Positions 164 to 51,293 of a stretch of DNA of 64,000 nucleotides are shown here, piece by piece. Location of the stretch: assembly GCA_019897865.1 (NCBI GenBank), contig GCA_019897865.1_4532.1; one strand, given 5' to 3'. The notes below the pieces were generated by a model that worked only from the letters and a program-made list of their open reading frames with translations, ran no database searches and had not been told where the DNA came from. The position numbers were made by a program, and so were the translations under genes. Source of the DNA: a phage. Every line of letters begins with the position of its first letter. The first letter of the stretch is position 1.

Positions 164-1108
164 ATGGGACAAATAATTCTTGACAATCGTAACGGAATCA
201 ATTATAGTGTCTGCGATTTCCATAGGGTAGTGCTGCCTTACTCAAGGCAGTTCTCTTCACAACCTAAACACAACGTTTTCGTTTTTAACGGAGTGCCAAC
301 AAAAGGTAAAGAGGGCTTTTTAGCCCTTAAAAACCTAGGCTTTAAAATGGTTATGGATTTGGATGACTCTTTAGTTATTCCAAAAGGACACATGTTAGAA
401 GGTATTTTTGAATCAGGTATTCGTGAACATTTAAAATGGTTTTTAGAGCACAGTGATCTTGTTACAACTACGACACCTGCCTTGCAAGTTGAACTTTCAC
501 AATACAATGATAATGTGCACATAATCCCTAATGGACTTCCTTACGATGAAGGTCAATTTGTGTTGACCCGTGACCGCTACTCCAAAACTCCATTAGTCTG
601 GGCTGGAAGTGAAACACATAAACAAGATTTGGCTATCTTGCCCGATTTTGGTAAAGATCTTACAATATGTGGTTTTCGTAGGGATTCTGAAGTTTTAAGT
701 AGTCGTGAATGGTCTGTAATTAGAGAAAATGTAGCACCAACTTGTGTTTATGAAGGTGTAAGACCATATGCCAACTACATGGAATCTTACGATGGTCATC
801 AAATCAGTCTTGCACCATTGATCGATAACGTGTTTAATAATGCAAAAAGCAATCTTAAAATTCTTGAGGCAGGTGCTAAGGGTTTACCTTTAATCTGCTC
901 TCCTCGTGAGAATTATCATACACAAGAGTTTAAAGATTTGTTATTCTTTGCTGAAACACCTTCCGAGTGGAAAGATATTACGGAATACTTATTAAGTGCT
1001 CCCGATGTTTGCATGGAGAAAGGATTAGCATTAGCTAAGTATGTCAGGACTCATTATCACATTGATGTGTTGAATGAGCGTCGTAGACTTTTATTTGAGG
1101 AGCTATAA
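164..1108 (+). CDS. Glycosyltransferase-like protein (GT-B fold, GT1/GT4-type C-terminal motif)
   Basis: 314 aa; C-terminal region ...SLAPLIDNVFNNAKSNLKILEAGAKGLPLICSP matches the classic GT-B motif (E-x7-E region, LEAxAxGxP). Recognised by eye, not by search. Confidence 0.5.
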   Translation: MGQIILDNRNGINYSVCDFHRVVLPYSRQFSSQPKHNVFVFNGVPTKGKEGFLALKNLGFKMVMDLDDSLVIPKGHMLEGIFESGIREHLKWFLEHSDLVTTTTPALQVELSQYNDNVHIIPNGLPYDEGQFVLTRDRYSKTPLVWAGSETHKQDLAILPDFGKDLTICGFRRDSEVLSSREWSVIRENVAPTCVYEGVRPYANYMESYDGHQISLAPLIDNVFNNAKSNLKILEAGAKGLPLICSPRENYHTQEFKDLLFFAETPSEWKDITEYLLSAPDVCMEKGLALAKYVRTHYHIDVLNERRRLLFEEL

Positions 1109-1398: not shown

Positions 1399-3177
1399 GT
1401 GTCGCACATTATAACTAAATATGGATTTGATGTTGATCTTAGCAAGGAAGGGCATACAGGTTGTCCGCGCTGCATGAAAAATGGCAAGGATCGCTCTCGT
1501 AATAACCTGATGGTTTATGGATTAGATTCTAATGGAGAGCATAAAGGTGCTAAGTGCTTTGCGTGTGAATACACTATTCCTAGCGTAGAATGGTTACGAG
1601 AAAATGGTGAAGTTTTAGAAGAAGAGGAGGAGATTGTGGGTTCGGAATTTAATAAACAGATTCATCGTAAAATTGTTCAAGAAACATCAACCAACCCACG
1701 TGGTTATCGAGGCATTAAAGAAAAAGTTTCATCTTTCTATGGTGTTCGTTATGAATACCGTCAGGAAGGGGATCAGATGGTAGTAGAAAGTTGTTTATAT
1801 CCGACTACCATCGGTAAAGAATTGGTTGGTTTTAAGCGTCGTATTCATCCTAAAGATTTCAGTAAACCTATTGGTCAAGTAGGTAAAGATGTAGATCTTT
1901 TTGGACAAATTCGTTTTGCAGACCGTTCTCATACTGTTGTAATTACAGGTGGTGAACACGATGCTCTGGCAGCTTATCAAATGCTATCTGAAAACTTGGA
2001 CAGTAAATATGAGCTTCCAGCCGTAGTAAGTGGCACAACTGGTGAAACCAGTATGTATAAACAAGTTCAGGCACAATATCCTTTCTTTGAAAAATTTAAG
2101 AAGATTATTGTTTGCATGGATAACGACAAAGCAGGTAATGAGGCATTTGAAAATATTGTTAAGGTGTTACCTCGTAACAAAGTCTACCGTATGCAGATGG
2201 ATCTTAAGGATGCCAATCAGTATCTGGAAGAAGGTCGTGCAAAAGATTTCGTAAAAGCTTTTTGGAGTGCTCGTCTATACACCCCAGCAGGTGTTTATGC
2301 TTCTAATGTCTTGTATGAAGCTGCATTGGAATGCTTGGAATCCAAGATGATTACCTTGCCTCCTTTTATGCGTGTTGCTGCAAATATGTTGGGGGGTGGT
2401 TTAGTAGAGGAAGAGATTACAGTCATCCTGGCAAAGACCAGTATCGGTAAAACTTTGATGGTGAACGAGATCACCAAACATATTATTGTTGCGCACCCAG
2501 AACATACCCTAGGTATTCTGTCCTTGGAAGCAACTTATAAGAAATATTCTCGTAACCTGTTGTCCTCGTTCCTGCATATTCCTCTACACAGGAAAACACC
2601 GGAAGAGAAATTTCAAATCTTGGAAGAGAATAAAGAAAAAATCCTAGATTTTTACGAAAGAGAAGATGGATCACCACGTTTTTATGTGTGTGATGATCGT
2701 GGAGCAGATGTGGAGTCTATCAAAGAAAAAGTTTTGGAGATGATCATCTATTTTGGAGTAACAATTCTTGTTATCGACCCTTATTCTGATTTGCTTTCTG
2801 GTATGGATGTTCAAGCCCAGGAAGAGTTAGCAACATGGTTGAAGCGCATCATGAAAGAGTATGCTATAACCATTATCGTCATCTCACACGTTAAGAAGTC
2901 GGCTAATGGTGGCAATGAACACTTAACAGAGGACGATGCAATGGGTAGTAGTTTCTTGGCTAAAGGTGCTGGTATTACCTTGGCTTTGGAACGAGATAAA
3001 GCCGCTGAAGACCCTGTAGAACGCAATACGACTCATTGCTTTATCCTAAAAAACCGTGAGTTCTCGGAAACTGGTCCGGCAGGGCAGTTTTACTATGACA
3101 TTAGAACTGCAACTCTGCATGACAAAGAGCAGTATTTCAACAATCCTGCTAATTTGCCTACGGATAGCAACTATTAA
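1399..3177 (+). CDS. Bifunctional DNA primase/helicase (T7 gp4-like)
   Basis: 592 aa, GTG start after AGGAG; N-terminal Cys4 zinc ribbon (CPRC...CFAC), TOPRIM-like acidic motifs (GGEHD, CMDNDKAGNEA), C-terminal DnaB/RecA-like P-loop (AKTSIGKT). Confidence 0.85.
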   Translation: MSHIITKYGFDVDLSKEGHTGCPRCMKNGKDRSRNNLMVYGLDSNGEHKGAKCFACEYTIPSVEWLRENGEVLEEEEEIVGSEFNKQIHRKIVQETSTNPRGYRGIKEKVSSFYGVRYEYRQEGDQMVVESCLYPTTIGKELVGFKRRIHPKDFSKPIGQVGKDVDLFGQIRFADRSHTVVITGGEHDALAAYQMLSENLDSKYELPAVVSGTTGETSMYKQVQAQYPFFEKFKKIIVCMDNDKAGNEAFENIVKVLPRNKVYRMQMDLKDANQYLEEGRAKDFVKAFWSARLYTPAGVYASNVLYEAALECLESKMITLPPFMRVAANMLGGGLVEEEITVILAKTSIGKTLMVNEITKHIIVAHPEHTLGILSLEATYKKYSRNLLSSFLHIPLHRKTPEEKFQILEENKEKILDFYEREDGSPRFYVCDDRGADVESIKEKVLEMIIYFGVTILVIDPYSDLLSGMDVQAQEELATWLKRIMKEYAITIIVISHVKKSANGGNEHLTEDDAMGSSFLAKGAGITLALERDKAAEDPVERNTTHCFILKNREFSETGPAGQFYYDIRTATLHDKEQYFNNPANLPTDSNY

Positions 3178-3196
3178 GGGCTTCGGCCCTTTTATT
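3177..3196 (+). terminator. Rho-independent terminator after primase-helicase
   Basis: AGGGC-TTCG-GCCCT hairpin followed by TTTTATT. Confidence 0.6.
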
Positions 3197-3207
3197 AAAA
3201 ATACCTG

Positions 3208-3236
3208 TTGACAACTTTACGGAAGGGACTTATACT
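3208..3236 (+). promoter_or_regulatory. Sigma70-like promoter
   Basis: TTGACA (3208-3213), 17-bp spacer, TATACT (3231-3236); AAGAGGAG RBS and ATG at 3270 downstream. Confidence 0.6.
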
Positions 3237-3269
3237 TGTCTCATCAACCAAACAAGAGGAGAAGTAAAA

Positions 3270-3701
3270 ATGCGTATGACAATCGATCTGAATGCAAAAG
3301 TTAAAGCTGCTGGTGCTCTGGGCGCTGGTGTTATTAAACACAAACAAGCGTTGGCATTTGCCATCCCACATATGATTGTTGAGGATCATCCTGAAGAGTT
3401 TGCTGTAAAAGTTGTTGAGAACAATGTCTCTGTTATTGAACATCTTCCAACTGGACGTTCTTACCGTGTTGTTTCTTCTAGAGGTTTCCGTTTCGATGTA
3501 AGCCCTTCTTTCACAAAAGGTGCTGGTCGTAGTAAAGTGGGTATTCTTTCTTACAAATATTATATCGATAAAGTTGCAGATGGTGTCGCATTCTGTCGTG
3601 TAAGTGAAGGTAAAGTAGATATCATCTTTAAAAATACCAAAAACATGGTTATTTCTGACGATGGGAAAGTTGACCTCACTATTGAGTTCGCTAACAACTA
3701 A
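3270..3701 (+). CDS. Hypothetical protein
   Basis: 143-aa ORF with strong promoter and RBS; no recognisable motif. Confidence 0.6.
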   Translation: MRMTIDLNAKVKAAGALGAGVIKHKQALAFAIPHMIVEDHPEEFAVKVVENNVSVIEHLPTGRSYRVVSSRGFRFDVSPSFTKGAGRSKVGILSYKYYIDKVADGVAFCRVSEGKVDIIFKNTKNMVISDDGKVDLTIEFANN

Positions 3702-3710
3702 GGAGGACTA

Positions 3711-4505
3711 TTGAGCAAGTTGAATACACTTGATCAATATTACACTAACCCCGCTTATGCGGGGTTCTTATGTGATAAGATCAAAGAAATTTTTGGAGAG
3801 GAAGCTAACTACGTAGAACCATCTGCGGGAGAAGGAGCTTTCTCTTCTTGTTTTAAAAACATAACTTCTTTTGATATTGACCCTAAGTTTGAAGATTGTA
3901 TTGAGGCAGATTTTTTAGCTCAATCTGTTGAGTCTGTTGGCAGTGTAACTGCTTTTGTCGGTAATCCTCCGTTTGGAAAAAATGCTAGTCTTGCCATTAA
4001 GTTCTTTAACCATTGTGCTGAAATGTTGGATAACGAAGGTGGTATTTGTTTTATCTTGCCTCGCACATTTCAAAAAATCTTTTTTGCACACAAACTAAAT
4101 CCCCACATGCATCTTCTTTACGAAGAAGAATGTCCAAAAGGATCTTTTATTCTTCATGGAGAACCTTGGGATGTTCCTTGTGTATTCCAGATATGGATTA
4201 AACGCAACGAGAAGCGTTCTCCCGTTGTTTTAGGAGAGAATCGACTGTTCGTATTAGGTAACAGTAAAGACTACGATATAGCCGTTAGGAGAGCGGGAGC
4301 AAGTGCAGGTAAAGTGTTATCAGAAGAAGATTCTTTATCTGAAGCATCTACCTATTTTTTAAAAGCCTTGACTTCTGATCTTAAAACGCGTATCATTGAG
4401 GCTTACCCGTTACTTAAAGCTGAAGCTAGTAAAACTGCGGGAGTAAGAAGTTTAAGTTTAAAAGAACTTCAGTGGGTTCTGGAGAACATTAGAAAGGAGG
4501 AATAG
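3711..4505 (+). CDS. DNA methyltransferase (N6-adenine/N4-cytosine class, orphan)
   Basis: 264 aa, TTG start; DQYYTNP near N-terminus, SAM-binding EPSAGEGAF (motif I), catalytic NPPF (motif IV). No adjacent restriction endonuclease seen. Confidence 0.7.
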   Translation: MSKLNTLDQYYTNPAYAGFLCDKIKEIFGEEANYVEPSAGEGAFSSCFKNITSFDIDPKFEDCIEADFLAQSVESVGSVTAFVGNPPFGKNASLAIKFFNHCAEMLDNEGGICFILPRTFQKIFFAHKLNPHMHLLYEEECPKGSFILHGEPWDVPCVFQIWIKRNEKRSPVVLGENRLFVLGNSKDYDIAVRRAGASAGKVLSEEDSLSEASTYFLKALTSDLKTRIIEAYPLLKAEASKTAGVRSLSLKELQWVLENIRKEE

Positions 4506-7102
4506 TGAGTAAGTTTACATGGGATATTGAAGCAAACGGATTGTTGAATAATGACACTATTGATTATTTAGCTAGTCCTTATCGTCTCAAAGACACATTT
4601 CAAATGCACTGTATTGTCTTAGAGAACCATGAAACAGGAGAAATAGTAGCTTTCCACGATGGCCCTAAATACATCTTTGATGGGCGTCCTTATGAAGAGT
4701 CAGATGGTAAATACACATATGTTCTTAAAGAGTATGTGGCGCAAGATTACACGCATTTTCAACTAAAAGATTTCCCAGACTTTATTAATCATGAAGGTTA
4801 TTTTAAAGACAAGCCTGAATATCTGGTTGAAATGGCTGTGGCTCACAACGGTATCAACTACGACTGGTTGGCTACAAAACTGTTTTATGGATTAGATTAC
4901 AGTGTTAAATATAATACGTGGGGCAAAAATAAGGTAAAACTTATTGACTCCTTGATTTTGAGTAAAGTGTTAAACCCAGATCGAAAGATTGAGGGCAAAT
5001 CAGGACATAGCTTGGCAGCACTTTCTCGAAAAGCAGGTGGTGATGTAAAAATAGATTTCCGTAAAGAGATTCCAGAAGAAGATCGATTTAAGACTTTTGC
5101 TGCGGATATGCTTTATTACTGTATCTATGACAACAAAGCCAATACGAGCGTATATAACTACCTTATGGAAGAATGGGGCGATTATGATAAATGGGAAGGT
5201 CCATTTGAACTTGAACAACGTGTAGCAGACATTATCACACGCCAAGAACACCGTGGGTTTGCTTTTAACATGAAGCAAGCAGAAGAGAACCTTGCTTTTT
5301 TGGATGCAGAAATGGAGCGTCTTCGTTTACTCGTTGAGCCTATTTTGCCACCTAAACCAGCAACAAAAGGCTATCTTAAGGCTTTTATTCCACCTAAGTT
5401 GCAAATTAAAAAGAACTTAGAGCCAACTAACCATATGATCAATTTTGCTAAGAAACATGATGGTCATTTGGAAGAGAGGGATGGCGATTGGTGGTTAGTT
5501 ATGTTGGGGAAAGAGTGGAAACTGCCAGTTGCAGCAGATGAACCTCTATGTGATCCTAACATCCCTGCAACATTGAACGATACAACCCATATTAAAAACT
5601 GGCTTGTAGGATTAGGTTGGGTACCGTCTGAATATAAAGATAAAGACTTGACCCTTAAATCTGGAACCAAGATTAAAAAGAGCGAGGAAGAACTTCAGAA
5701 AGGTATTCGAGCTTACGTTGAGCAAACTCTATCTTCTAATTTTTGTCAGGATCGTTGTGATCATCTGGAGTGCACACCGGAAACCTTGGAAAGGAAGATT
5801 CAAGAGCGTATAGCAAAAGGTAAAGGTCGCGGTCTTAAAGTATTGACTAACCCATGTTTTACCAAAGGTCAGGAAAAAGAAATTTGTCCTAACCTGCAAG
5901 CTTTGGGTGAGAAATTTCCTTATGCTACACAGATTGTAGAATACTTAACGTATAAACACCGTAGGAACTCTATTTTAGGTGGTGGTGCCGATTGGGAAGA
6001 AGACGAAGAAGATCAAGAATACGATAAAGGTTTCTTAGCCGCAGTAAGGGCGGATGGTCGTATTCCTACCCCAGCCGCTACATGTGATGCTGCAACCTCT
6101 CGTATGAAGCATAGATCTGTAGCTAATATTCCTCGTGTCACATCTTTGTTTGGATGGGAGATGCGTAACTTGTTTGGTGTGGAGGTTCCTAAATACTTCC
6201 AGATTGGTTATGACTTCGACTCTTTGGAAGCAAAGATTGAGTCACATTATTGTTGGCGCTACGAACCGGAGCCTCATGAATACTGTAACGCTCTCTTGTT
6301 AGAGAAGCCTAACGATGTTCATACCATGATGGCAAAACGTATTACAGACACTATTGGACGTAAGTTTGAACGTAGTCCAGCGAAATCTGTTAAATACGGG
6401 ATCACTTATGGTGCACAAGCAGACAAGGTTGCTAAAACAATTGGTAGCGATAAGTTTACAGGTCAGTTAGTGTTCGATGCTTTCTGGGAAGCTGCATTCC
6501 CACTGGCACGTCTTAAAGAACGTTTAAACGATTTCTGGGTTAAGACTGGTAAACAGTATGTTTTGGGTATTGACGGTCGTAAGGTTCCTACTCGTTCTGC
6601 TCACGCGATTCTTAACTCTCTGTTCCAAAGTGGTGGGGTTATCTGTGCTAAACGTGCAATGGTTATTTATGACGATATGATCGAAGAAGAAGGACTAAGT
6701 GTTGACTTCTTTAAAGATGACTGGAAGAATAAAGACTTCGTGCAACAAATGATTGCATACCACGATGAAGCCCAGCTTGAAGTTTCTCGTAACCTTGTAG
6801 AATTCAAATGGTTTTCACCTGAATCGTTAGGTTGGAAGAAAGTAGACGATCCTGAAGAACAAAAGAAAATTGATAAAGAATGCCTTGCTAAAGTTGAAGA
6901 ATGGAAGCATAATAAGGAAAAAGAGACGGGACAAATTTGGGCTAATATTCATGAATCTCCCAAAGGTGGATGGTTTACAGCCTATAGTCGGGCAGGTGAA
7001 CTTGCTGCCTTAGCTGTTACTAAGGCTGGAGAATTTTACAATCTTAATGTTCAGCTTACTGCCGGATATGACGTGGGTAATTCCTGGGCATCCTGTCATT
7101 GA
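4505..7102 (+). CDS. DNA polymerase, family A (T7 Pol-like) with 3'-5' exonuclease domain
   Basis: 865 aa; Exo I DIEANGL; polymerase motif A DFDSLEAKIESHY, motif B RSPAKSVKYGITYGAQ, motif C HDEAQLEV. Confidence 0.85.
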   Translation: MSKFTWDIEANGLLNNDTIDYLASPYRLKDTFQMHCIVLENHETGEIVAFHDGPKYIFDGRPYEESDGKYTYVLKEYVAQDYTHFQLKDFPDFINHEGYFKDKPEYLVEMAVAHNGINYDWLATKLFYGLDYSVKYNTWGKNKVKLIDSLILSKVLNPDRKIEGKSGHSLAALSRKAGGDVKIDFRKEIPEEDRFKTFAADMLYYCIYDNKANTSVYNYLMEEWGDYDKWEGPFELEQRVADIITRQEHRGFAFNMKQAEENLAFLDAEMERLRLLVEPILPPKPATKGYLKAFIPPKLQIKKNLEPTNHMINFAKKHDGHLEERDGDWWLVMLGKEWKLPVAADEPLCDPNIPATLNDTTHIKNWLVGLGWVPSEYKDKDLTLKSGTKIKKSEEELQKGIRAYVEQTLSSNFCQDRCDHLECTPETLERKIQERIAKGKGRGLKVLTNPCFTKGQEKEICPNLQALGEKFPYATQIVEYLTYKHRRNSILGGGADWEEDEEDQEYDKGFLAAVRADGRIPTPAATCDAATSRMKHRSVANIPRVTSLFGWEMRNLFGVEVPKYFQIGYDFDSLEAKIESHYCWRYEPEPHEYCNALLLEKPNDVHTMMAKRITDTIGRKFERSPAKSVKYGITYGAQADKVAKTIGSDKFTGQLVFDAFWEAAFPLARLKERLNDFWVKTGKQYVLGIDGRKVPTRSAHAILNSLFQSGGVICAKRAMVIYDDMIEEEGLSVDFFKDDWKNKDFVQQMIAYHDEAQLEVSRNLVEFKWFSPESLGWKKVDDPEEQKKIDKECLAKVEEWKHNKEKETGQIWANIHESPKGGWFTAYSRAGELAALAVTKAGEFYNLNVQLTAGYDVGNSWASCH

Positions 7103-7120
7103 TCTAACATGTTGTTTTAT

Positions 7121-7140
7121 AAGGGGCTTCTGCCCCTTTA
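7121..7140 (+). terminator. Terminator-like hairpin after DNA polymerase
   Basis: AAGGGGC-TTCT-GCCCCTT hairpin then T-rich TTTAT. Confidence 0.5.
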
Positions 7141-7151
7141 TAGGAGAAGAT

Positions 7152-7343
7152 ATGAGTTACGATTTAGATTATTTTGGTATGCCTTACCTACCAGATGAAT
7201 TTGAAGGTGAAGAAGAATGTGAATGGGACGATGGAGATATCCGTTGTTGGTCTTGTGGTAAAGATATGTCCTATGAACAACATATGCACAATGATGGTTT
7301 CTGCATACATTGTTATAATGAAATTGATCTGGAGGAAGATTAA
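7152..7343 (+). CDS. Small acidic zinc-ribbon protein
   Basis: In-frame ATG at 7152 preceded by GGAG; 63 aa with CWSC...CIHC. The track ORF from 7047 is probably an over-extension across the terminator. Confidence 0.5.
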   Translation: MSYDLDYFGMPYLPDEFEGEEECEWDDGDIRCWSCGKDMSYEQHMHNDGFCIHCYNEIDLEED

Positions 7344-7510
7344 TGGGAAATGGTATCATGATTTGCTATAAAATTGTGCGTATTGTCGGAGACGAAATTA
7401 CCACTCGGTATTTTATGATAGAGTCTCAAGCCGATGAGGTTTACAATGACTGGCTTGAAAAAGGTGGATACGATTTTGTATCTAAAGAAACTTTCCGTTT
7501 AGAGGTATAA
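7343..7510 (+). CDS. Small hypothetical protein (55 aa)
   Basis: ATG overlaps upstream stop (TAATG), GGAGG 7 nt upstream; below the ORF-track size cutoff. Confidence 0.4.
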   Translation: MGNGIMICYKIVRIVGDEITTRYFMIESQADEVYNDWLEKGGYDFVSKETFRLEV

Positions 7511-7520
7511 GGAGAAAACA

Positions 7521-7739
7521 ATGCGTAAACTAGTGAGCTTTAATGTTTCAATTCTTATTGATGAACAAAATGAAGATGTTATTAAAGGTCTTGCAAATAA
7601 GATTGCAGGTGGAATGACGGAAGCTGAAGTGTGGGAAGAATGTGCTCGACTTTATGAGGAAGGTGTTATTGAGGTCTTGGGGGATGAGATTAATATGGAC
7701 GATGTTGTAAAAGTAACTGTGGAGCGTATCAATGACTAA
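7521..7739 (+). CDS. Hypothetical protein
   Basis: 72-aa ORF with AAGGAGAA RBS. Confidence 0.5.
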   Translation: MRKLVSFNVSILIDEQNEDVIKGLANKIAGGMTEAEVWEECARLYEEGVIEVLGDEINMDDVVKVTVERIND

Positions 7740-8328
7740 ATCAAAACAAATCAATATTGCCAAAGAAATTCTTACCGTATTAAAGATCGCTGATCCTAAT
7801 TCTGTCTTGGCTGGCGGTGCTGTTCGTGATTGGCGTATTCTTGATATTGCTGGACGTGATCTGGATTTTTACACGTCTCTTCCTGCACATCGATCAGAAG
7901 AGCAAATACAAGACTTGATTGCATCTGCTTTGATGGGAACTAATATTCGTAAACTAGGAAACAAAGAGGCTTCTGATAACTACGAGGGTGTTACTGGTCT
8001 TAAACACGTTTTTGAATTTGAACGTGATGGTCAGCTTTGCAACCTTATGATTATGGACCCAAATGTAATGACAACCTTTCTGAATGAGTTTGATCTGTCC
8101 ATCTGCCAGGCTGCATTTGATGGAAAGGATTGTTATTACTCTAAAGATTTTGAAACAACTTTGGAAACAGGGATCTGCTTCTTGCACAAAGATGTTAGAG
8201 AAGATGCCAAACATGTTATTAAAATCGCTACGCGTTTCCCATATCTTCGCTTTGTTAAAGAGGTTAAGGTTCCACGTCCACCTCAAGTAGATACCAAATC
8301 GGAAGAAGAAGATGATATTCCTTGGTAA
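7732..8328 (+). CDS. Nucleotidyltransferase, CCA-adding/poly(A) polymerase head-domain type, with SSB-like acidic C-terminal tail
   Basis: 198 aa; LAGGAVRDWRILDIAGRDLDFY matches the GGxVRD...DxD signature of class II tRNA nucleotidyltransferases; C-terminus ...SEEEDDIPW resembles the SSB C-terminal tip. Confidence 0.5.
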   Translation: MTKSKQINIAKEILTVLKIADPNSVLAGGAVRDWRILDIAGRDLDFYTSLPAHRSEEQIQDLIASALMGTNIRKLGNKEASDNYEGVTGLKHVFEFERDGQLCNLMIMDPNVMTTFLNEFDLSICQAAFDGKDCYYSKDFETTLETGICFLHKDVREDAKHVIKIATRFPYLRFVKEVKVPRPPQVDTKSEEEDDIPW

Positions 8329-8335
8329 TTAAAGC

Positions 8336-8365
8336 TTGACAATATTAAACATTTTATGATAGGAT
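8336..8365 (+). promoter_or_regulatory. Promoter-like element (cTTGACAA family), possibly giving a near-leaderless transcript
   Basis: TTGACA 8336-8341, about 18-bp spacer, TAGGAT; ATG at 8374 has no SD. Spacer shares ...AAACATTTTATG... with tRNA promoter 2. Confidence 0.4.
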
Positions 8366-8373
8366 AGCATTCA

Positions 8374-8766
8374 ATGACTGAACGTTCTAAGATAGCTGTT
8401 GAAACTGTTTATGGAAACTATACCAGTTTGACACTAGTTGAGAAAAATGTTGTAGGTCTTGACAACTCTTTTTATTTTCAAATTTTGGTTATTCAAGGTG
8501 GAAACAAGAAGCTAACTGCTCGTGTTGAAACATCTGAAATAATTGAAACCACTGTTACAAACAAAGAATTCATTTCACTGCAAGATACAATCCGAAACGT
8601 TATAGACGAAGAAGGCAAAGCTGCCACAATTAAACTCGGAGGTTTCCCAGTGCAAATAGTTCATTTTCCTAATGGTGAAATTGGAGTTGGAATAGGTAAA
8701 GGTAAATACCTGTTAGAGCAAGATGATATGGAAAGACTCCGCTCTTTCTGTGCAAAATTAATGTAA
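8374..8766 (+). CDS. Hypothetical protein
   Basis: 130-aa ORF. Confidence 0.5.
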   Translation: MTERSKIAVETVYGNYTSLTLVEKNVVGLDNSFYFQILVIQGGNKKLTARVETSEIIETTVTNKEFISLQDTIRNVIDEEGKAATIKLGGFPVQIVHFPNGEIGVGIGKGKYLLEQDDMERLRSFCAKLM

Positions 8767-8782
8767 TGTAGAGGAGATAATA

Positions 8783-9670
8783 ATGTCCGTAATTAATACT
8801 GAAACTGATCGTAAAGGCAAAACCGTAACTTATGCAACTGGTATCGTAGACTACGTTAAACTGGATAAATTCGCTGAACCTAAAACTTTTCATTGGGAAG
8901 GAAAAACGATTGTTTCAACTCACCGAGCCTCTCTTGTTCTGAAAGAGAAAGGTGCTAAACCAGATGAGAAAGGTGTTTGGATTTCTCTTGGTGACATTGA
9001 ACTGAAAGAAGGTTATGAAAACCTGCAAGTCAAAGAAGGTGATAATTGGATCACTATTGAAAAAGGTGTAGAAGTAAGTATTGATATTGATCGCGTTGAT
9101 AATAAAGGCGGTAAAACTTACTACAATACTAAAAAATCTCGTATTACAGTATTGTCTACCGATGGTGTTCAGAAGTCTAACAAATCTTCTGGCAATAAAG
9201 GTTCCAACGATGCTGCTCCTAAGCAGTCCTATAAAAAACGTGATACTGTAGGTCTGGAAACTGGTCACGCAGTAAATGGTGCACTGGAACTGATTCGTAA
9301 TGGTGTTAAAGGCGATGCTTTCGATATCGCTGGGGTTGTTCAATCTGCAACTGTCACGCTGAAATCTGAAATTGCTGAATCTCGTGGCGTTGATATTAAT
9401 GATTATGATCTTGGGGCATCTGTTGGTCACGCTATTCTCAATGCTTGTAAAGACCATACCATTAAGACTGTCTCTGTAGAAGATCTGATTGAGTCTGCTC
9501 GTAAAGTTCTGGCTCTGTCTGATAAAGTTGCTGCTGCCATTCGTGGTTCCGCAGAACAGCCTAAGAAAGAAGAGAAGAAAGAAGTTAAGAAACCTGAACC
9601 ACAACCAGAACCAACTCCAAGTAATCAAGAAGAACCTCCAATGGACTTCGACGATGATATTCCATTCTGA
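8783..9670 (+). CDS. ssb: Single-stranded DNA-binding protein
   Basis: 295 aa ending ...MDFDDDIPF, identical in form to the bacterial SSB C-terminal protein-interaction tip, preceded by a Pro/Glu-rich linker. Confidence 0.7.
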   Translation: MSVINTETDRKGKTVTYATGIVDYVKLDKFAEPKTFHWEGKTIVSTHRASLVLKEKGAKPDEKGVWISLGDIELKEGYENLQVKEGDNWITIEKGVEVSIDIDRVDNKGGKTYYNTKKSRITVLSTDGVQKSNKSSGNKGSNDAAPKQSYKKRDTVGLETGHAVNGALELIRNGVKGDAFDIAGVVQSATVTLKSEIAESRGVDINDYDLGASVGHAILNACKDHTIKTVSVEDLIESARKVLALSDKVAAAIRGSAEQPKKEEKKEVKKPEPQPEPTPSNQEEPPMDFDDDIPF

Positions 9671-9700
9671 TCTTATTGATTTATAAAGAGTTTTTTATAA

Positions 9701-9736
9701 AAGAAAAGGGAACCTTTGCGGGTTCCCTTTTTTATT
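9701..9736. terminator. Bidirectional rho-independent terminator between convergent operons
   Basis: GGGAACC-TTTGCG-GGTTCCC hairpin flanked by A-run upstream and TTTTTTATT downstream; separates + strand SSB from the - strand tail-fiber operon. Confidence 0.65.
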
Positions 9737-12410
9737 AGTCGTAATATTTCAAACCTGTAATGAACTTCGATCCCCAATCCGCACTTGCGGCGGTGAACGT
9801 CAACATCCAAGTTGTAGCTGTACCAGTGAAGACCTCTCGTTGCACAGTACCATCAGTGTGGTAAATGTCCACGCCAGTATGTCCATTCTTAGGAATAGTG
9901 AAGGTAACAGCACTGGTAGTGTCTCGTGCATAAGAACAAACAAATGGTGTCCCCGCCCAAACTGGATTTGTCATATCACCCATCTCAAGCTGTGGAACCC
10001 AAGCAATAAGACCTGCCGTACCATCTCCTGCGAAAGTGTCTGATCCACTTGCATTCAAAGCTATAATCTCATAGGTTATAGATGCTTGTTTGGCAACTGT
10101 CACTTTGTGTAGAATTACACGATACCAACCATTCCCCATATCGATTATGTTTGCATCTGCACCTGTAAATGTTCCAGCTACAAGATCATAAGTCCCTTCG
10201 TTAATCTCATCTCCTGAAGTCAATTTGAGTTTCACTTTAGTGATCCCGTCTGGCTTCAAGAATACGGATGCCGCCCAGTGCTTACCTGCTGTAATATCAG
10301 AAGCTGTATTCACTGCTGATAAAATATGTTGTCCTGAAGTTGTAGAAGGTGTTAACTTGTAAGTGTTAGCCGTAGTTCCAACCGGAGAGTTGATTGTTGA
10401 TGCTGTGACTGTCAAGTTCGTCTTCAACCACGGGGAAGCTGTTGTCAAGTTATTGTTGATAAAGATATGTGTACGGTTGGCTGCTACAACACGTCTACCT
10501 TGTGGAGTTGTACCAACATATTCTAAAGGTGCTACGGGAGCAGAACTCTCTGTAGGTACAAGGATATCTCCAGAAGCCCTGGCATAACGGTTACTCCTAT
10601 TGACCTTTACATCCGTTGGAATAGTTTCTTGCGTCAAATCATAGTCCATCACAATCACCACAGCATTCACTGCGAGATAAGAACTATCTTCGGCAGTTAC
10701 CACACCTTGATAAGTTGCTCTACAACCGATACGACAATCCCCATCAGCAACCGCTGTAATAACGCCTGTAACGGGGTCAACTGTTGCTACCGTAGGGTCA
10801 TTAGAGAAATACTCAACAACCATACCAGGTAAGCTTGCTGCTCCTGTTGGTGTTATTTCTGCTACCATTGTTTGTGTTGTTCCTACATCCATCGCAGATA
10901 AGCTAGGGGTGTAAACGCTCAATGTTGAAGCATATCCTCCAGAGGTATCTGATAAAGTTGTTCCTTCAGCGTTTAAGGCTGTCATACCTGCATCAAAACC
11001 ACCTTCTGCATGGAAAGTCATTAAACCAGTAGATGATATTGTCATGTTTGCAGGGGCAGAAGAAGTGTATTTAATATTGAAAAGTTTACCTCCTTCTGGT
11101 CTAACAGAATGTGTCAACTGTTTAGTTCCACCTACAATACAAATTCCTAAAGAATCTGTAGTTAAGCCAGTTGCCAGAATATCGCCCGTAATCACGGAGC
11201 TTGCTATTGGTGTGAATTTATTATAGTTTAGACCACTATTGAACAGATACGAGGCTTTCCCATCTTTCCAAATACCGGAATAATACATATCTCCATTATA
11301 AACGAAAAAGGTTCCTTGATAACCTAATTGGTTAGTAACATCCATATTCAGCGTATGAACGCTTGTGAGCTTGTTTATATCCCAAGAACCCACTCCTTCA
11401 GGTTTAACTGGTTTTCCCACTTGGAGTGGATCTCCGCTCGCAGAATCATACCCCAAACCTAAGTTTGCAGTGTAGTTCTTACCAATAGCCCACAAGGAAT
11501 TATTGATCCCAACGAAAAAAGAGTGGCGGCTTGGTGGAAACTTCCATGTTGAGAAACCTGCTGCAAAGGTATCCAGTTTAGTGTAGGTTGTTTCTGTATT
11601 AGATCTAACATATAAGTAGTTTACTGTACCCGTGCCACCGGAGGTATCTCCTACAACTATTGTCTGGGAAACTGTATTGATGTAATCTTTGACATACACT
11701 GTTTCAGTAGCGGATATCTTGGCATTGACAAAAGCTGTTGTTGTGTTATTATTACCTGCTAAACCTTTACTAGCTCCACAAACACGCAAGGTTCCCACAT
11801 TGTTGACATAAGAACATTGGTTGTAACCTGCATCAAAAGCAACTGCTGCACTTGTTATCTGACGAGGAGTAGAAACTTCGTTAGTAGTACTTGCACCTAA
11901 ACTACCTACTGTGTTTTGACCTGATCCATAAAGAACACCACTATTCATTAACCAGAGAGTATTGTTATATCCTCCCTTAACCTCTTTAAGATTAGCTAAA
12001 GAGATAGTCCCTGTTATTACAGATGGAAAGCTGGTCCAAGTAGTTACACATGCGTCCGTACCACCTGCTGCTATAGATCCTACCAATCCTGCTGTCAATC
12101 CTGAATATTGCCATCCTCCACTGTTAGTTTTAATAACAAAACAACGATCTGCGGTAAACACATCCGCTACTACAGTAGAAGCTAAGTGGAAATTATTGAA
12201 TCGTGCACTACGAGTTCCATCTGCAATCTCACCAAAAAGGTTTGCGCCTTGAGTAAACAATCTACCATCATTAAGCAAAATTGCTAAACTGCTATTAGAA
12301 TTACCAGCATTATCTGGGTAATCTAAAGTGATTACTTTTTTAACAATACCTGCTGGCAGAGGAACGACACCAGTGCTGGTCATAATAGTAAATATTGGAA
12401 TTGGAAACAT
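9735..12410 (-). CDS. Tail fiber protein with bacterial Ig-like (Big_2-type) domain
   Basis: 891 aa, Gly/Thr/Ser/Asn-rich; segment DPTVATVDPVTGVITAVADGDCRIG... resembles Big_2; last gene of the - strand structural operon. Confidence 0.65.
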   Translation of the reverse strand: MFPIPIFTIMTSTGVVPLPAGIVKKVITLDYPDNAGNSNSSLAILLNDGRLFTQGANLFGEIADGTRSARFNNFHLASTVVADVFTADRCFVIKTNSGGWQYSGLTAGLVGSIAAGGTDACVTTWTSFPSVITGTISLANLKEVKGGYNNTLWLMNSGVLYGSGQNTVGSLGASTTNEVSTPRQITSAAVAFDAGYNQCSYVNNVGTLRVCGASKGLAGNNNTTTAFVNAKISATETVYVKDYINTVSQTIVVGDTSGGTGTVNYLYVRSNTETTYTKLDTFAAGFSTWKFPPSRHSFFVGINNSLWAIGKNYTANLGLGYDSASGDPLQVGKPVKPEGVGSWDINKLTSVHTLNMDVTNQLGYQGTFFVYNGDMYYSGIWKDGKASYLFNSGLNYNKFTPIASSVITGDILATGLTTDSLGICIVGGTKQLTHSVRPEGGKLFNIKYTSSAPANMTISSTGLMTFHAEGGFDAGMTALNAEGTTLSDTSGGYASTLSVYTPSLSAMDVGTTQTMVAEITPTGAASLPGMVVEYFSNDPTVATVDPVTGVITAVADGDCRIGCRATYQGVVTAEDSSYLAVNAVVIVMDYDLTQETIPTDVKVNRSNRYARASGDILVPTESSAPVAPLEYVGTTPQGRRVVAANRTHIFINNNLTTASPWLKTNLTVTASTINSPVGTTANTYKLTPSTTSGQHILSAVNTASDITAGKHWAASVFLKPDGITKVKLKLTSGDEINEGTYDLVAGTFTGADANIIDMGNGWYRVILHKVTVAKQASITYEIIALNASGSDTFAGDGTAGLIAWVPQLEMGDMTNPVWAGTPFVCSYARDTTSAVTFTIPKNGHTGVDIYHTDGTVQREVFTGTATTWMLTFTAASADWGSKFITGLKYYD

Positions 12411-49369: not shown

Positions 49370-49448
49370 TGGAGGCGGGAATTGGATTTGAACCAATGAT
49401 CTCCAGCATATGAAACTGGCGAGGACGACCAAACTCCTCTATCCCGCT
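49370..49448 (-). tRNA. tRNA-Met (anticodon CAT); initiator/elongator/Ile-lysidine not resolved
   Basis: Hand-folded cloverleaf: T-arm ATTGG-TTCAAAT-CCAAT, anticodon loop TTCATAT, encoded CCA; A1-C72 mismatch at acceptor top. Confidence 0.6.
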
Positions 49449-49454
49449 ATTATG

Positions 49455-49526
49455 TATCCCGTGCTGGATTCGAACCAGCGTCACAAGAAATTGTGGATCT
49501 CTTATCCTGTAAGTCTAACGGGAAAC
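49455..49526 (-). ncRNA. tRNA-like element (canonical T-arm and acceptor, no canonical anticodon arm)
   Basis: T-arm GCTGG-TTCGAAT-CCAGC and near-complementary acceptor strands, but the central region forms CACAA-TTTC-TTGTG instead of a 5-bp/7-nt anticodon arm. Confidence 0.3.
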
Positions 49527-49600
49527 TGGTTGTTTCGACAAGAATCGAACTTGTGTCTCACGATTATCAGTCGTGGGTTCTACCATTGAACTACGAAACA
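49527..49600 (-). tRNA. tRNA-Ile (anticodon GAT)
   Basis: Perfect cloverleaf: acceptor TGTTTCG/CGAAACA, D GTTC/GAAC, anticodon stem CACGA/TCGTG with loop CTGATAA, T-arm ACAAG-TTCGATT-CTTGT, encoded CCA. Confidence 0.75.
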
Positions 49601-49606
49601 TTTAAT

Positions 49607-49683
49607 TGGTCGGAATTGCAGGATTCGAACCTGCGACCCTACGCTCCCAAAGCGTATGCTCTACCAAACTGAGCTAAATTCCG
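49607..49683 (-). tRNA. tRNA-Pro (anticodon TGG)
   Basis: Acceptor CGGAATT/AATTCCG, D GCTC/GAGC, anticodon stem TACGC/GCGTA with loop TTTGGGA, T-arm GCAGG-TTCGAAT-CCTGC, CCA. Confidence 0.75.
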
Positions 49684-49688
49684 TTATA

Positions 49689-49764
49689 TGGCTGGTCTGT
49701 CTGGATTTGAACCAAACCTACGACAGTCAAAGTGTCGTGTGCTACCGGACTACACTACAAACCA
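49689..49764 (-). tRNA. tRNA-Gln (anticodon TTG)
   Basis: Acceptor TGGTTTG/CAGACCA (U1-A72, G73), anticodon stem CGACA/TGTCG with loop CTTTGAC, T-arm TTTGG-TTCAAAT-CCAGA, CCA. Confidence 0.7.
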
Positions 49765-49862
49765 ATAAATCATTTAATGAAGGGCAACCAGAAGAGGTGT
49801 GAGAGAAGGAGAAAACCATGAGTAAAAGAGAAAGTTTTCTGGCAACCCTTTATTAAATAATT

Positions 49863-49936
49863 TGGAGCGTTCTACGAGGATCGAACTCGTGCCGCCGACT
49901 TGGAAGGACGGAATGCTACCGCTACACCAAGAACGC
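49863..49936 (-). tRNA. tRNA-Gly (anticodon TCC)
   Basis: Acceptor GCGTTCT/AGAACGC, anticodon loop CTTCCAA, T-arm ACGAG-TTCGATC-CTCGT, discriminator U, CCA; one mismatch in anticodon stem. Confidence 0.65.
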
Positions 49937-49947
49937 CCTACATCTTT

Positions 49948-49977
49948 ACTATACTACATTTTACTATTGATTGTCAA
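49948..49977 (-). promoter_or_regulatory. Promoter (CTATTGACAA family) for downstream tRNA block
   Basis: - strand CTATTGACAA with TTGACA at 49977..49972, about 18-bp spacer, TATAGT; ends about 12 nt before tRNA-Gly. Confidence 0.5.
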
Positions 49978-50250
49978 TAGTTTTATTGAGTGGGACAGTG
50001 ACGAGTATCCCATTGGGTGACTAGCCCTACGTTCGGTAAGCTAACTTAAAATAATACAAAACCAAAGTCAAATATTATTCTTCGTTGCTGTCGATGGGAG
50101 AGCCGCTTCTTCTTTTGCCCCATCCAACCCTACTCCGGTCAAGTTTCAGGTAACTCTTTTTGTGATCAACACAATACTAAGAACACTGTCTTTCGAACAG
50201 ACCTTGTGCACAGGATACGACGATCAATCACAGTGCCCTTAATGTTGTGT

Positions 50251-50325
50251 TGGTGCTCCCACTCTGAATCGAACAGAGATCCACGGATTACAAAACCGTT
50301 GTAATAGCCATTATACTATAGGAGC
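50251..50325 (-). tRNA. tRNA-Thr (anticodon TGT)
   Basis: Acceptor GCTCCTA/TGGGAGC, anticodon loop TTTGTAA, T-arm CTCTG-TTCGATT-CAGAG, A73, CCA; loop-closing pair mismatched. Confidence 0.6.
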
Positions 50326-50331
50326 AAAGCT

Positions 50332-50408
50332 GGGACTCGGCAGGATTCGATACCTGCAATTCCAGAAGCCTCTTGGCGACTGGGGGTTTACCTTAACTCT
50401 ACAAGTCC
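50332..50408 (-). ncRNA. tRNA-like element with extended central hairpin in place of the anticodon arm
   Basis: Good acceptor (GGACTTG/CGAGTCC) and T-arm-like GCAGG...CCTGC (8-nt loop), but middle forms CCAGTCGCC-AAGA-GGCTTCTGG; no CCA. Confidence 0.3.
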
Positions 50409-50415
50409 ATAATTC

Positions 50416-50501
50416 TGGCGATGAGTATAGGATTTGAACCTATATCGTTCTTTCGAACACGGATTAACAGTCCGCCGCTTAAACCATTCAGCCAACTCAT
50501 C
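50416..50501 (-). tRNA. Class II (long variable arm) tRNA with anticodon GTT (Asn codons)
   Basis: 86 nt: acceptor GATGAGT/ACTCATC, 3-bp D stem, anticodon stem GCGGA/TCCGT with loop CTGTTAA, variable arm GTTC-GAAA-GAAC, T-arm ATAGG-TTCAAAT-CCTAT, G73, CCA. Confidence 0.55.
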
Positions 50502-50507
50502 TTAATT

Positions 50508-50595
50508 TGGTGGTGAGTGATGGAGTCGAACCACCCGAATCGCAATGATAACAGATTTACAGTCTGCCCCGCTACCCCTACGGAATTAACTCACC
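50508..50595 (-). tRNA. tRNA-Tyr (anticodon GTA), class II
   Basis: 88 nt: acceptor GGTGAGT/ACTCACC, anticodon stem GCAGA/TCTGT with loop CTGTAAA, long variable region, T-arm GGTGG-TTCGACT-CCATC, A73, CCA. Confidence 0.65.
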
Positions 50596-50725
50596 TAAAT
50601 ACTAATATTTAAATTCTTTTTAAAATAGCCAGTGTTCACACCACTAACTATGATTTATCGGTAAGATGGTGGGGGCCATCTGCCGAAAGTTTACTCTATT
50701 AAAGTAAGCCATATTAAAAAGAACT

Positions 50726-50811
50726 TGGCGGTAGATGTAGGACTCGAACCTACACGCCGTTTCCGACTACAGTTTAGCAAACTGTCGTGGCTACCATTTC
50801 ACCAATCTACC
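50726..50811 (-). tRNA. tRNA-Ser (anticodon GCT), class II
   Basis: 86 nt: acceptor GGTAGAT/ATCTACC, anticodon stem ACAGT/ACTGT with loop TTGCTAA, variable arm GTCG-GAAA-CGGC, T-arm GTAGG-TTCGAGT-CCTAC, G73, CCA. Confidence 0.7.
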
Positions 50812-50816
50812 TAATC

Positions 50817-50907
50817 TGGCGGAAGGAGGGAGAGTCGAACTCCCAAGGCTCTTTCAAGCTCGGCGGTTTTCAAGACCGTTTTCGTCGCCACGTCGATTTG
50901 CCCTTCC
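50817..50907 (-). tRNA. tRNA-Ser (anticodon TGA), class II
   Basis: About 91 nt: acceptor GGAAGGG/TCCTTCC, anticodon loop CTTGAAA, variable arm GCTT-GAAA-GAGC, T-arm GGGAG-TTCGACT-CTCCC, G73, CCA. Confidence 0.65.
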
Positions 50908-50911
50908 ATAC

Positions 50912-50945
50912 TTATAATCTAACATAAAATAATGTTTGTTGTCAA
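50912..50945 (-). promoter_or_regulatory. Promoter (CTATTGACAA family) for the tRNA-Ser block
   Basis: - strand CTATTGACAA (TTGACA 50945..50940), 18-bp spacer ...AAACATTATTTTATGT, TAGATT, then tRNA-Ser about 9 nt downstream. Confidence 0.5.
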
Positions 50946-51141
50946 TAGTTTTTTAAAACATTTTACCATGAATGGTGACTCCACCAACCCCCGTTCTCCA
51001 CGAACGGTGCTCTTCGAGCATTTATGTCTTCTAATATAACCGTGGCCTTTGTTTATAATGTCTGACATATTTGCCTCATTCTCTGCCACCATGATCAGTA
51101 GTGGGTTCAAATCACTTGAGCTAATTCATGTTAAAATGTTC

Positions 51142-51216
51142 TGGTGTCTTTACAAGGAATCGAACCTTGACTAAGAGTTTAGAAGACTCCTGTGCTATCC
51201 ATTACACCATAAAGAC
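51142..51216 (-). tRNA. tRNA-Arg (anticodon TCT)
   Basis: Acceptor GTCTTTA/TAAAGAC, D GTGT/GCAC, anticodon stem GGAGT/ACTCT with loop CTTCTAA, T-arm CAAGG-TTCGATT-CCTTG, CCA. Confidence 0.7.
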
Positions 51217-51218
51217 TT

Positions 51219-51293
51219 TGGTGGCCCTGGCTGGTTTCGATCCAGCTACCTATCGGTTATGAGCCGACAGCTCTCCCATTGAGCTACAGGGCC
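51219..51293 (-). tRNA. tRNA-Met (anticodon CAT), elongator-type; unusual T-loop ATCGAAA
   Basis: Acceptor GGCCCTG/CAGGGCC, D GCTC/GAGC, anticodon stem GTCGG/CCGAT with loop CTCATAA, T-arm GCTGG-ATCGAAA-CCAGC, A73, CCA. Confidence 0.65.

Follow-up and report, generated by a model that had tools for sequence, protein, structure and literature searches.

Why would a small phage nucleotidyltransferase (NTase) end in a tail that resembles that of a bacterial SSB (a protein that binds single-stranded DNA), one gene away from a protein that carries the bacterial ending exactly? The question is raised by the open reading frame (ORF) at positions 7732 to 8328 of a 64,000-nt stretch of phage DNA, here called the window (contig GCA_019897865.1_4532.1 of GenBank assembly GCA_019897865.1). 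Positions 7000 to 9800 share 97 to 99% identity with Phapecoctavirus genomes, including phAPEC8, Schickermooser, and ESCO13 (Stephanstirmvirinae, ∼150-kb E. coli myophages), and by this measure the window is from a phAPEC8-like E. coli myophage of the genus Phapecoctavirus. The gene call and the nucleotidyltransferase label are already in databases: several Phapecoctavirus records in GenBank name the product a “putative tRNA nucleotidyl transferase / poly(A) polymerase,” and RefSeq a “nucleotidyltransferase.” The tail was the addition of an initial annotation made from the letters alone, which proposed either docking through a mimic of the SSB tail or minimal tRNA repair. We find that the NTase family associates with DNA replication, not with tRNA, and that the enzyme is probably recruited to the replication machinery rather than acting in tRNA repair.

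The enzyme and its C-terminal tip

As initially annotated, the ORF encodes 198 aa with GGAVRD at residues 28 to 33, DLD at residues 43 to 45, and a C terminus reading ...SEEEDDIPW. Its parts are the following.

7732..8328, + strand: NTase gene, 198 aa, ATG start, PHROG 10174/1614
7813..7866, + strand: motif A, from GGAVRDW (residues 28 to 34) through DLD (residues 43 to 45)
8266..8310, + strand: NTase linker, variable and disordered, residues 179 to 193
8311..8325, + strand: NTase C-terminal tip DDIPW, residues 194 to 198, proposed docking motif, with the stop codon next

The protein is a direct member of PHROG 10174/1614, matching the profiles phrog_10174 (E 5.5e-63, residues 1 to 128) and phrog_1614 (E 7.6e-12, residues 4 to 193), both described as “nucleotidyltransferase”; the tail is a feature of some lineages of this family only. 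A Pfam search, which the initial annotation had suggested as a check, gave PF01743 PolyA_pol at 15.2 bits (E 0.028), under the cutoff of 23, and the NCBIfam CCA model TIGR02692 scored 12.3 bits against a threshold of 438.8. Neither Pfam nor NCBIfam assigned a family to the NTase, to the 130-aa protein encoded after it, or to the body of the SSB-like protein that follows, and no PADLOC model matched any of the three. Searched against the PDB as a single sequence, the NTase returned noise alone (an abscisic-acid receptor, E 0.07), so a family profile and a structure were needed. With the profile, the only chains recovered were those of CCA-adding enzymes and poly(A) polymerases. The matches ran through motif A (best E, 1.4e-3), which aligned with the GGAVRD...DxD of the CCA enzymes 6ibp and 1miv. 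When the family was compared with E. coli Cca by hhalign, the sole recovered segment placed residues 130 to 177 on the motif C/D region, with 34% probability. An AlphaFold2 model built from an alignment of 44 homologs (mean predicted local distance difference test [pLDDT] score, 86.5; predicted template modeling score, 0.80) has a class II Pol beta-like head-domain fold. The earlier description “head domain only” is therefore roughly right: the model comprises the head plus a neck stub, and the body and tail domains are missing.

Among 186 aligned family members, G28, G29, D43, and D45 are invariant, W34 is kept in 185 and R32 in 181, and W34, Y84, K164, and R32 are all at least 97% conserved. 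E or D occupies position 95, likely the third carboxylate, in 70%. With an active site this invariant we expect an active enzyme: judged by these residues, the ORF should encode a nucleotidyltransferase of the class II (poly(A)/CCA-enzyme) lineage that is minimal, template-independent, and catalytically competent, reduced to head and neck stub.

The family comprises 1038 clusters in a 50%-identity library (E ≤ 1e-3), mostly of 170 to 230 aa; longer members (257 to 400 aa), scanned for domain fusions, consist of the NTase plus unannotated extensions alone. A literature search found no experimentally characterized member of PHROG 10174/1614. The nearest stand-alone counterpart in the comparison, the Streptococcus pneumoniae “CCA-adding enzyme head domain” protein NP_344798.1 (PDB 2la3, 191 aa, function unknown), shares 13% identity with the phage protein; it is bacterial, no SSB-like tail is reported for it, and our literature search found no paper on it. 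A precomputed tag, PF26128.2, on homologs P0009, P0015, P0017, and others was not reproduced by a local Pfam-A scan up to an E value of 10. The homolog in Vibrio phage ICP1 (L034 5956-6369) is 137 aa long and matches query residues 4 to 127; in ICP1 isolates the gene appears truncated or split.

The tail (residues 179 to 198) is modeled as low-confidence coil, with pLDDT values of 58 and then 42 over the last two 10-residue blocks. Within the Phapecoctavirus clade, the core has a mean pairwise identity of 0.71, against 0.28 in the linker and 0.92 in the 5-residue tip. Ten clade members, 58 to 97% identical to the window protein, end in DDIPW, and one ends in DSFPW, while the linker changes in both sequence and length, with indels just ahead of the tip. 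A tip conserved down to 58% identity beside a divergent, disordered linker bears out the attention that the initial annotation gave to this tail and is the pattern typical of a short linear docking motif. Of the two outcomes that the annotation had named as refuting it, a prediction without a nucleotidyltransferase fold and a C-terminal tail that homologs do not conserve, neither was observed.

Similar endings recur outside the clade. The NTase of Citrobacter phage Tr1 retains ...KDIPW, and distant family members end in ...NDFPW, ...PDDIPW, ...SNDIPW, ...DDGIPF, ...KPIPF, ...ESIPY, or ...NNIPF, or in other acidic endings with a terminal F or W. Such tips are found in at least six other lineages whose nearest relatives do not have them. 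An aromatic residue is C-terminal in 27 of 146 family representatives, and ∼13 of those endings are acidic.

The ending is also rare among neighboring proteins. Within the window, an acidic stretch ending in IP[FW] occurs only in the NTase and the SSB-like protein, and the same two proteins are its only carriers among the 570 ORFs of at least 40 aa in the 151-kb Schickermooser genome, where the nearest other ending is that of a 63-aa ORF (...LQRLPF). Across 84 loci, the pattern [DE]-x(0-2)-[ILVMF]-P-[FWY]-end was matched by 6 of 64 NTases and by 13 of 1518 other ORFs (Fisher p = 6e-5, computed on counts that were not dereplicated). Eleven of the 13 are SSB-like; the other two are a gp4-like helicase fragment and an uncharacterized acidic protein of 138 aa. 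The last, at L078 569-985, lies 1.5 kb upstream of an NTase family member, has no obvious oligonucleotide/oligosaccharide-binding (OB) fold, and ends in ...YDIIFDDDIPF; it may be another non-SSB carrier of the exact SSB-type tip. Binding of the tip to its own catalytic domain was considered and set aside: the core is acidic (pI 5.4) and AlphaFold2 leaves the tail undocked, making a partner in trans likelier than autoinhibition. Our literature search found no report of the NTase tail or of natural enzyme-borne tips resembling the SSB C terminus.

Genomic context and the SSB-like neighbor

The family alignment located NTase genes at 80 loci on viral contigs, and the ORFs around them were clustered. 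Annotation of the top clusters gave T7-type primase-helicase, family A DNA polymerase, a second polymerase family, a FEN-type exonuclease, an ATP-dependent DNA ligase, and HNH endonucleases; RNA-repair genes were not among them. Dereplication of the NTases at 70% identity left 46 lineages, 34 of which have a replication gene (primase-helicase, DNA polymerase, FEN, ligase, or SSB-like) within 4 kb, including a primase-helicase in 26 and PolA in 22.

The module in the window runs from primase/helicase through a 143-aa ORF, a methyltransferase-like ORF, DNA polymerase, three small ORFs, the NTase, a 130-aa ORF, and the SSB-like gene to a terminator. The order of polymerase, NTase, 130-aa ORF, and SSB-like gene is retained in Justusliebigvirus, in Citrobacter phage Tr1, and in the divergent phiWec181. 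The features around the NTase are as follows.

1399..3177, + strand: primase/replicative helicase gene of the same replication module
4505..7102, + strand: family A DNA polymerase, 865 aa, directly upstream and in the same orientation
7521..7739, + strand: 72-aa ORF, phrog_25475, function unknown, overlapping the NTase start by 8 nt
8336..8365, + strand: good match to a sigma-70-like promoter (TTGACA-18-TAGGAT, TG upstream) in the gap separating the NTase from the 130-aa gene; it matches the consensus only, and such sites are not more numerous in this region than expected from shuffling
8374..8766, + strand: 130-aa ORF, phrog_16560, function unknown, always between the NTase and the SSB-like gene in Stephanstirmvirinae
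8783..9670, + strand: SSB-like protein, 295 aa
9632..9667, + strand: tip of the SSB-like protein, EPPMDFDDDIPF, identical to the C-terminal 12 residues of E. coli SSB
9704..9731: stem-loop terminator where the replication and tail-fiber transcription units converge, as in the terminator annotation of related phages

A small ORF of 69 to 87 aa abuts the NTase start in most related lineages. We looked for co-variation of these small upstream ORFs with the NTase tip, and the presence of the two does not track.

The downstream ORF had initially been called the phage SSB. Its tail justifies the comparison, since it ends in ...EPPMDFDDDIPF, identical over 12 residues to E. coli SSB (PDB 1eqq chain sequence). 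The rest of the protein fits less well: the N-terminal beta domain gave only weak OB-fold matches (Foldseek E, 0.03 to 0.1), Pfam found no SSB domain, and the matches to NCBIfam PRK09010 and the SSB PHROGs do not extend beyond the tail. The layout is a beta-rich N-terminal domain (residues 1 to 125), a disordered linker, a four-helix domain (residues 156 to 253), and a disordered tail rich in K, E, and P. Some GenBank records annotate the protein as SSB, and no other SSB is annotated in the genome. “SSB-like” is a reasonable name, and “SSB” goes further than proven.

Residues D290, P294, and F295 are invariant in 36 homologs of the SSB-like protein, DDDIPF is the commonest ending among its 120 homolog clusters, and every tip-ending homolog ends in PF. 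As far as sequence identity goes, the exact copy of the host tip shows that the phage would address either the partners of host SSB or phage proteins that read the same code.

In ∼20 of the 120 clusters, DDDIPF is not C-terminal and is followed by 14 to 17 more residues (APIGLQYGRNFLHCF, APIGLQYGMNLLHAMP, SPLGLQYPNHSMYALYA, and others). Alleles with this extension lie at L089 4731-4783 (nieznany), L003 5026-5973 (muut), and L002 5064-6035 (Tr1); it is absent from the window (9668-9703). Comparison of the DNA showed that in nieznany an HNH homing-endonuclease cassette of ∼0.5 kb takes the place of the stop codon and that its 5′ edge forms the extension, with the start codon of the endonuclease inside the extension in a different frame. 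Read-through into an intron was rejected as the source, there being no Rfam match and the extension being the edge of this cassette. The nieznany NTase keeps DDIPW.

Proposed docking and its alternatives

Partners that bind the bacterial SSB C-terminal tip (SSB-Ct) take the side chain of its terminal Phe into a hydrophobic pocket, contact the alpha-carboxylate with a basic residue, and present a basic ridge to the Asp residues (PMC3159472). The resemblance of the NTase tip to this element, claimed in the initial annotation, extends to the acidic run, the Ile-Pro, and the terminal aromatic residue with a free carboxylate at the extreme C terminus of a disordered linker, and stops at the last side chain, which is Trp instead of the invariant Phe. 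The NTase is, in addition, encoded one gene from a protein bearing the exact E. coli tip. Its own tip differs from SSB-Ct in sitting on an enzyme, not on an OB-fold binder of single-stranded DNA, and on a linker of ∼15 rather than ∼56 aa. With Trp in the NTase tips and Phe in the SSB-like tips, the former is a relative of SSB-Ct, not a copy. The terminal Trp thus lowers the case that the tip is an SSB-Ct but not the case that it works like one, and the two tips, to go by their last residues, may address different pockets or differ in affinity.

In T7, a basic patch on the DNA polymerase is the binding site of the acidic gp2.5 tail, whose C-terminal Phe is essential (PMC12339929 and references in it). 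The locus studied here follows the same principle: more than one protein of the replication module has a similar acidic, aromatic-ended tail, which in T7 reaches a common partner, and NTase family members typically have T7-type primase-helicase and PolA genes as neighbors. Sequence homology with the T7 proteins is lacking, however, and the carrier, a nucleotidyltransferase, is without a counterpart in T7. The T7 primase-helicase gp4 is said, from work of the Richardson laboratory, to carry a similar tail for the same T7 DNA polymerase.

Two side observations touch on this sharing of tips. On contig L081, a gp4-like helicase fragment (...ERADDRVPF, 3062-3904) and a gp2.5-like 183-aa protein (...DLDEDVPF, 6199-6750) share a tip, and the same contig has an NTase family member at 1481-2227. 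The phrog_862 proteins (223 to 245 aa, function unknown) at L025 727-1416, L031 3134-3805, and L042 7807-8544 have acidic tails ending in ...DDVPW, ...KDIPW, and ...EDTPW; they are found in the replication modules of other NTase-bearing phage contigs, so PW tips are not unique to the NTase.

From these comparisons we infer a tentative picture, to which we would give slightly less than an even chance as a whole: an active minimal transferase is recruited by its tip to the replisome or to a partner in the SSB hub and adds nucleotides to a 3′ end. The DDIPW tip on its ∼15-residue disordered linker would be a short linear motif that docks in the manner of SSB-Ct and the T7 gp2.5 and gp4 tails. It would tether an acidic catalytic domain, poor at binding nucleic acid, in trans to a partner at the replication fork that offers a basic ridge and a hydrophobic pocket. 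That partner may come from the phage replisome (the primase-helicase, or the polymerase of the gene just upstream), from among the host SSB-interacting proteins, or from both. At the fork, the enzyme would add nucleotides to the 3′ end of a nucleic acid, either an RNA primer or a DNA end.

A broader version, that the family is an accessory subunit of T7-type replisomes and that several of its lineages gained an SSB-Ct-like tip plugging the enzyme into the SSB hub of host or phage, seems to us somewhat unlikely. If true, the tip would make this the first natural enzyme to borrow the SSB docking code and would imply a previously unknown step of 3′-end nucleotide addition at phage forks. Should the tip be a docking code, SSB-Ct-type motifs would not be confined to SSBs and could serve phages for bringing enzymes to the hub of replication and repair, which would bear on the SSB interactome (also an antibacterial target) and on phage genome annotation. 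The catalytic domain itself stands for ∼1000 phage protein clusters labeled by similarity alone, for which relabeling is possible.

Several observations weigh against recruitment to replication through the tip. Synteny is not universal, with 12 of the 46 loci lacking a replication gene nearby. The tip-bearing P0018 locus lies outside a replication module, among UvrD, TerC, and rhamnose genes, and a search there for an adjacent tipped SSB found none. The tip is missing from most of the family (229 of 265 sequences) and from the sister genus Justusliebigvirus, whose NTase ends in ...NNEEFKI, which makes it an accessory rather than a core feature. It reads E-D-D-I-P-W and not the consensus D-D-D-[IL]-P-F, with Trp in every Stephanstirmvirinae-like member that has the tip. 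The extension found in some SSB-like alleles masks the free terminal Phe, which calls into question whether tip-mediated docking is essential. Finally, the acidic core has no evident nucleic-acid-binding surface, so that a protein or small molecule could instead be the substrate.

The same likeness to SSB-Ct could serve a different end. The tip has the acidic run, the Ile-Pro, and the terminal aromatic with a free carboxylate that SSB-Ct recognition requires, and a true SSB-Ct mimic could be aimed at host ExoI, RecQ, RecJ, PriA, chi, RNase HI, and others as an anti-host or anti-defense factor. The NTase would then compete with host SSB or would nucleotidylate, and so inactivate, the SSB partners. 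That the SSB-like protein copies the host tip over 12 residues suits this proposal, as does a catalytic core seemingly too acidic to bind nucleic acid alone. We nevertheless consider it unlikely, in both its parts. Trp takes the place of the invariant Phe and is found in no SSB-like homolog, the PADLOC models gave no match, and a literature search found no link to defense or anti-defense. The gene sits in a replication operon, not among early host-takeover genes, and most family members are tipless, yet their active site is invariant, which argues for a catalytic job independent of targeting the host hub.

Alternatively, the PW ending may be a motif private to the phage, its function unrelated to SSB-Ct and its resemblance to DDDIPF the product of compositional convergence. 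Candidate partners would be the 130-aa protein, whose gene is always adjacent, the 72-aa protein encoded upstream, or the SSB-like protein through its helical domain; or the motif might control the stability of the enzyme. The strict partition of Trp in NTases from Phe in SSB-like proteins over a long divergence speaks for such a separate “PW” class, as do the phrog_862 endings. Those phrog_862 proteins, however, lie in replication modules and resemble SSB analogs, the presence of the small upstream ORFs is unlinked to that of the tip, and the IPF and IPY endings of other lineages (P0198, P0149, L041, L021) bridge the two classes. We find this alternative doubtful, including the proposed partners and the control of stability.

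The GenBank label corresponds to a further possibility, that the protein is a minimal tRNA 3′-end (CCA) repair enzyme or a poly(A)-type RNA-tailing enzyme working with the phage tRNAs and RNA-repair cassette. Its closest structural and sequence relatives are indeed CCA-adding enzymes and poly(A) polymerases, and the phage has ten tRNA genes (49370-51293, − strand) adjoined by a cassette of a pseT-like kinase, an Rnl1-type RNA ligase, and a metallophosphoesterase (∼53470-55360, mapped from the Schickermooser annotation). The enzyme itself fits this role poorly. The PolyA_pol score falls under the Pfam gathering threshold, and compared with class II CCA-adding enzymes, A-adding enzymes, and PcnB the phage protein is half the size (198 versus ∼370 to 420 aa), without the body and tail domains for the acceptor/TPsiC arm of tRNA. 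Motif B (RRD), which discriminates the ribose 2′-OH, is missing: positions 119 to 121 are E-F-D, and the family has N, H, D, S, or E at 119 and F at 120, with no Arg, an equivalence that rests on our reading of the DFTINA-like segment FDLSICQA. Nor is there a motif D (EDxxR), the template for C/A selection; the window protein has R-E-D-A-K-H where E. coli Cca has EDPLRV, the family varies at positions 157 and 158 and has His or Tyr in place of the templating Arg. The family has instead invariant residues of its own (W34, Y84, K164).

The genomic setting agrees. All ten tRNA genes encode their own 3′ CCA, which speaks circumstantially against a need for CCA addition, and 45 kb separate the NTase from the RNA-repair cassette (cassette and tRNAs together, 41 to 47 kb away). 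Unlike the class II CCA enzymes and PcnB, the phage NTase is encoded in a DNA-replication module and bears a putative docking tail, and the neighbors of its family are DNA-replication, not RNA-repair, genes. The suggestion that a minimal tRNA 3′-end repair enzyme complements the RNA-repair cassette, also made in the initial annotation, thus finds no support, and we judge this role improbable. For the family as a whole, the database label “tRNA nucleotidyltransferase / poly(A) polymerase” is probably wrong, and the real job is probably tied to DNA replication.

That DDIPW is a chance resemblance without function is, on the sequence comparisons, already disfavored and to us highly improbable: the motif, with just five residues, is short and absent from many family members, but tip identity is 92% against 28% for the linker, the tip is kept across homologs of 58 to 97% identity despite nearby indels, and the pattern is confined to two neighboring proteins in a 151-kb genome and enriched in NTases (6/64 versus 13/1518).

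Minor features of the locus

Directly upstream of the primase/helicase gene, a 92-aa acidic ORF (1108-1386, + strand; pI 4.2) ends in ...YMMETNEPF, a weaker Pro-Phe C terminus. It matched no Pfam or NCBIfam family and might give the replication module a third protein with such a tail. Four consecutive glycosyltransferase genes are annotated directly upstream of the replication module in the Schickermooser RefSeq record, the last of them inside the window at ∼164-1108 (+ strand), and a dTDP-rhamnose pathway is encoded elsewhere in the genome.

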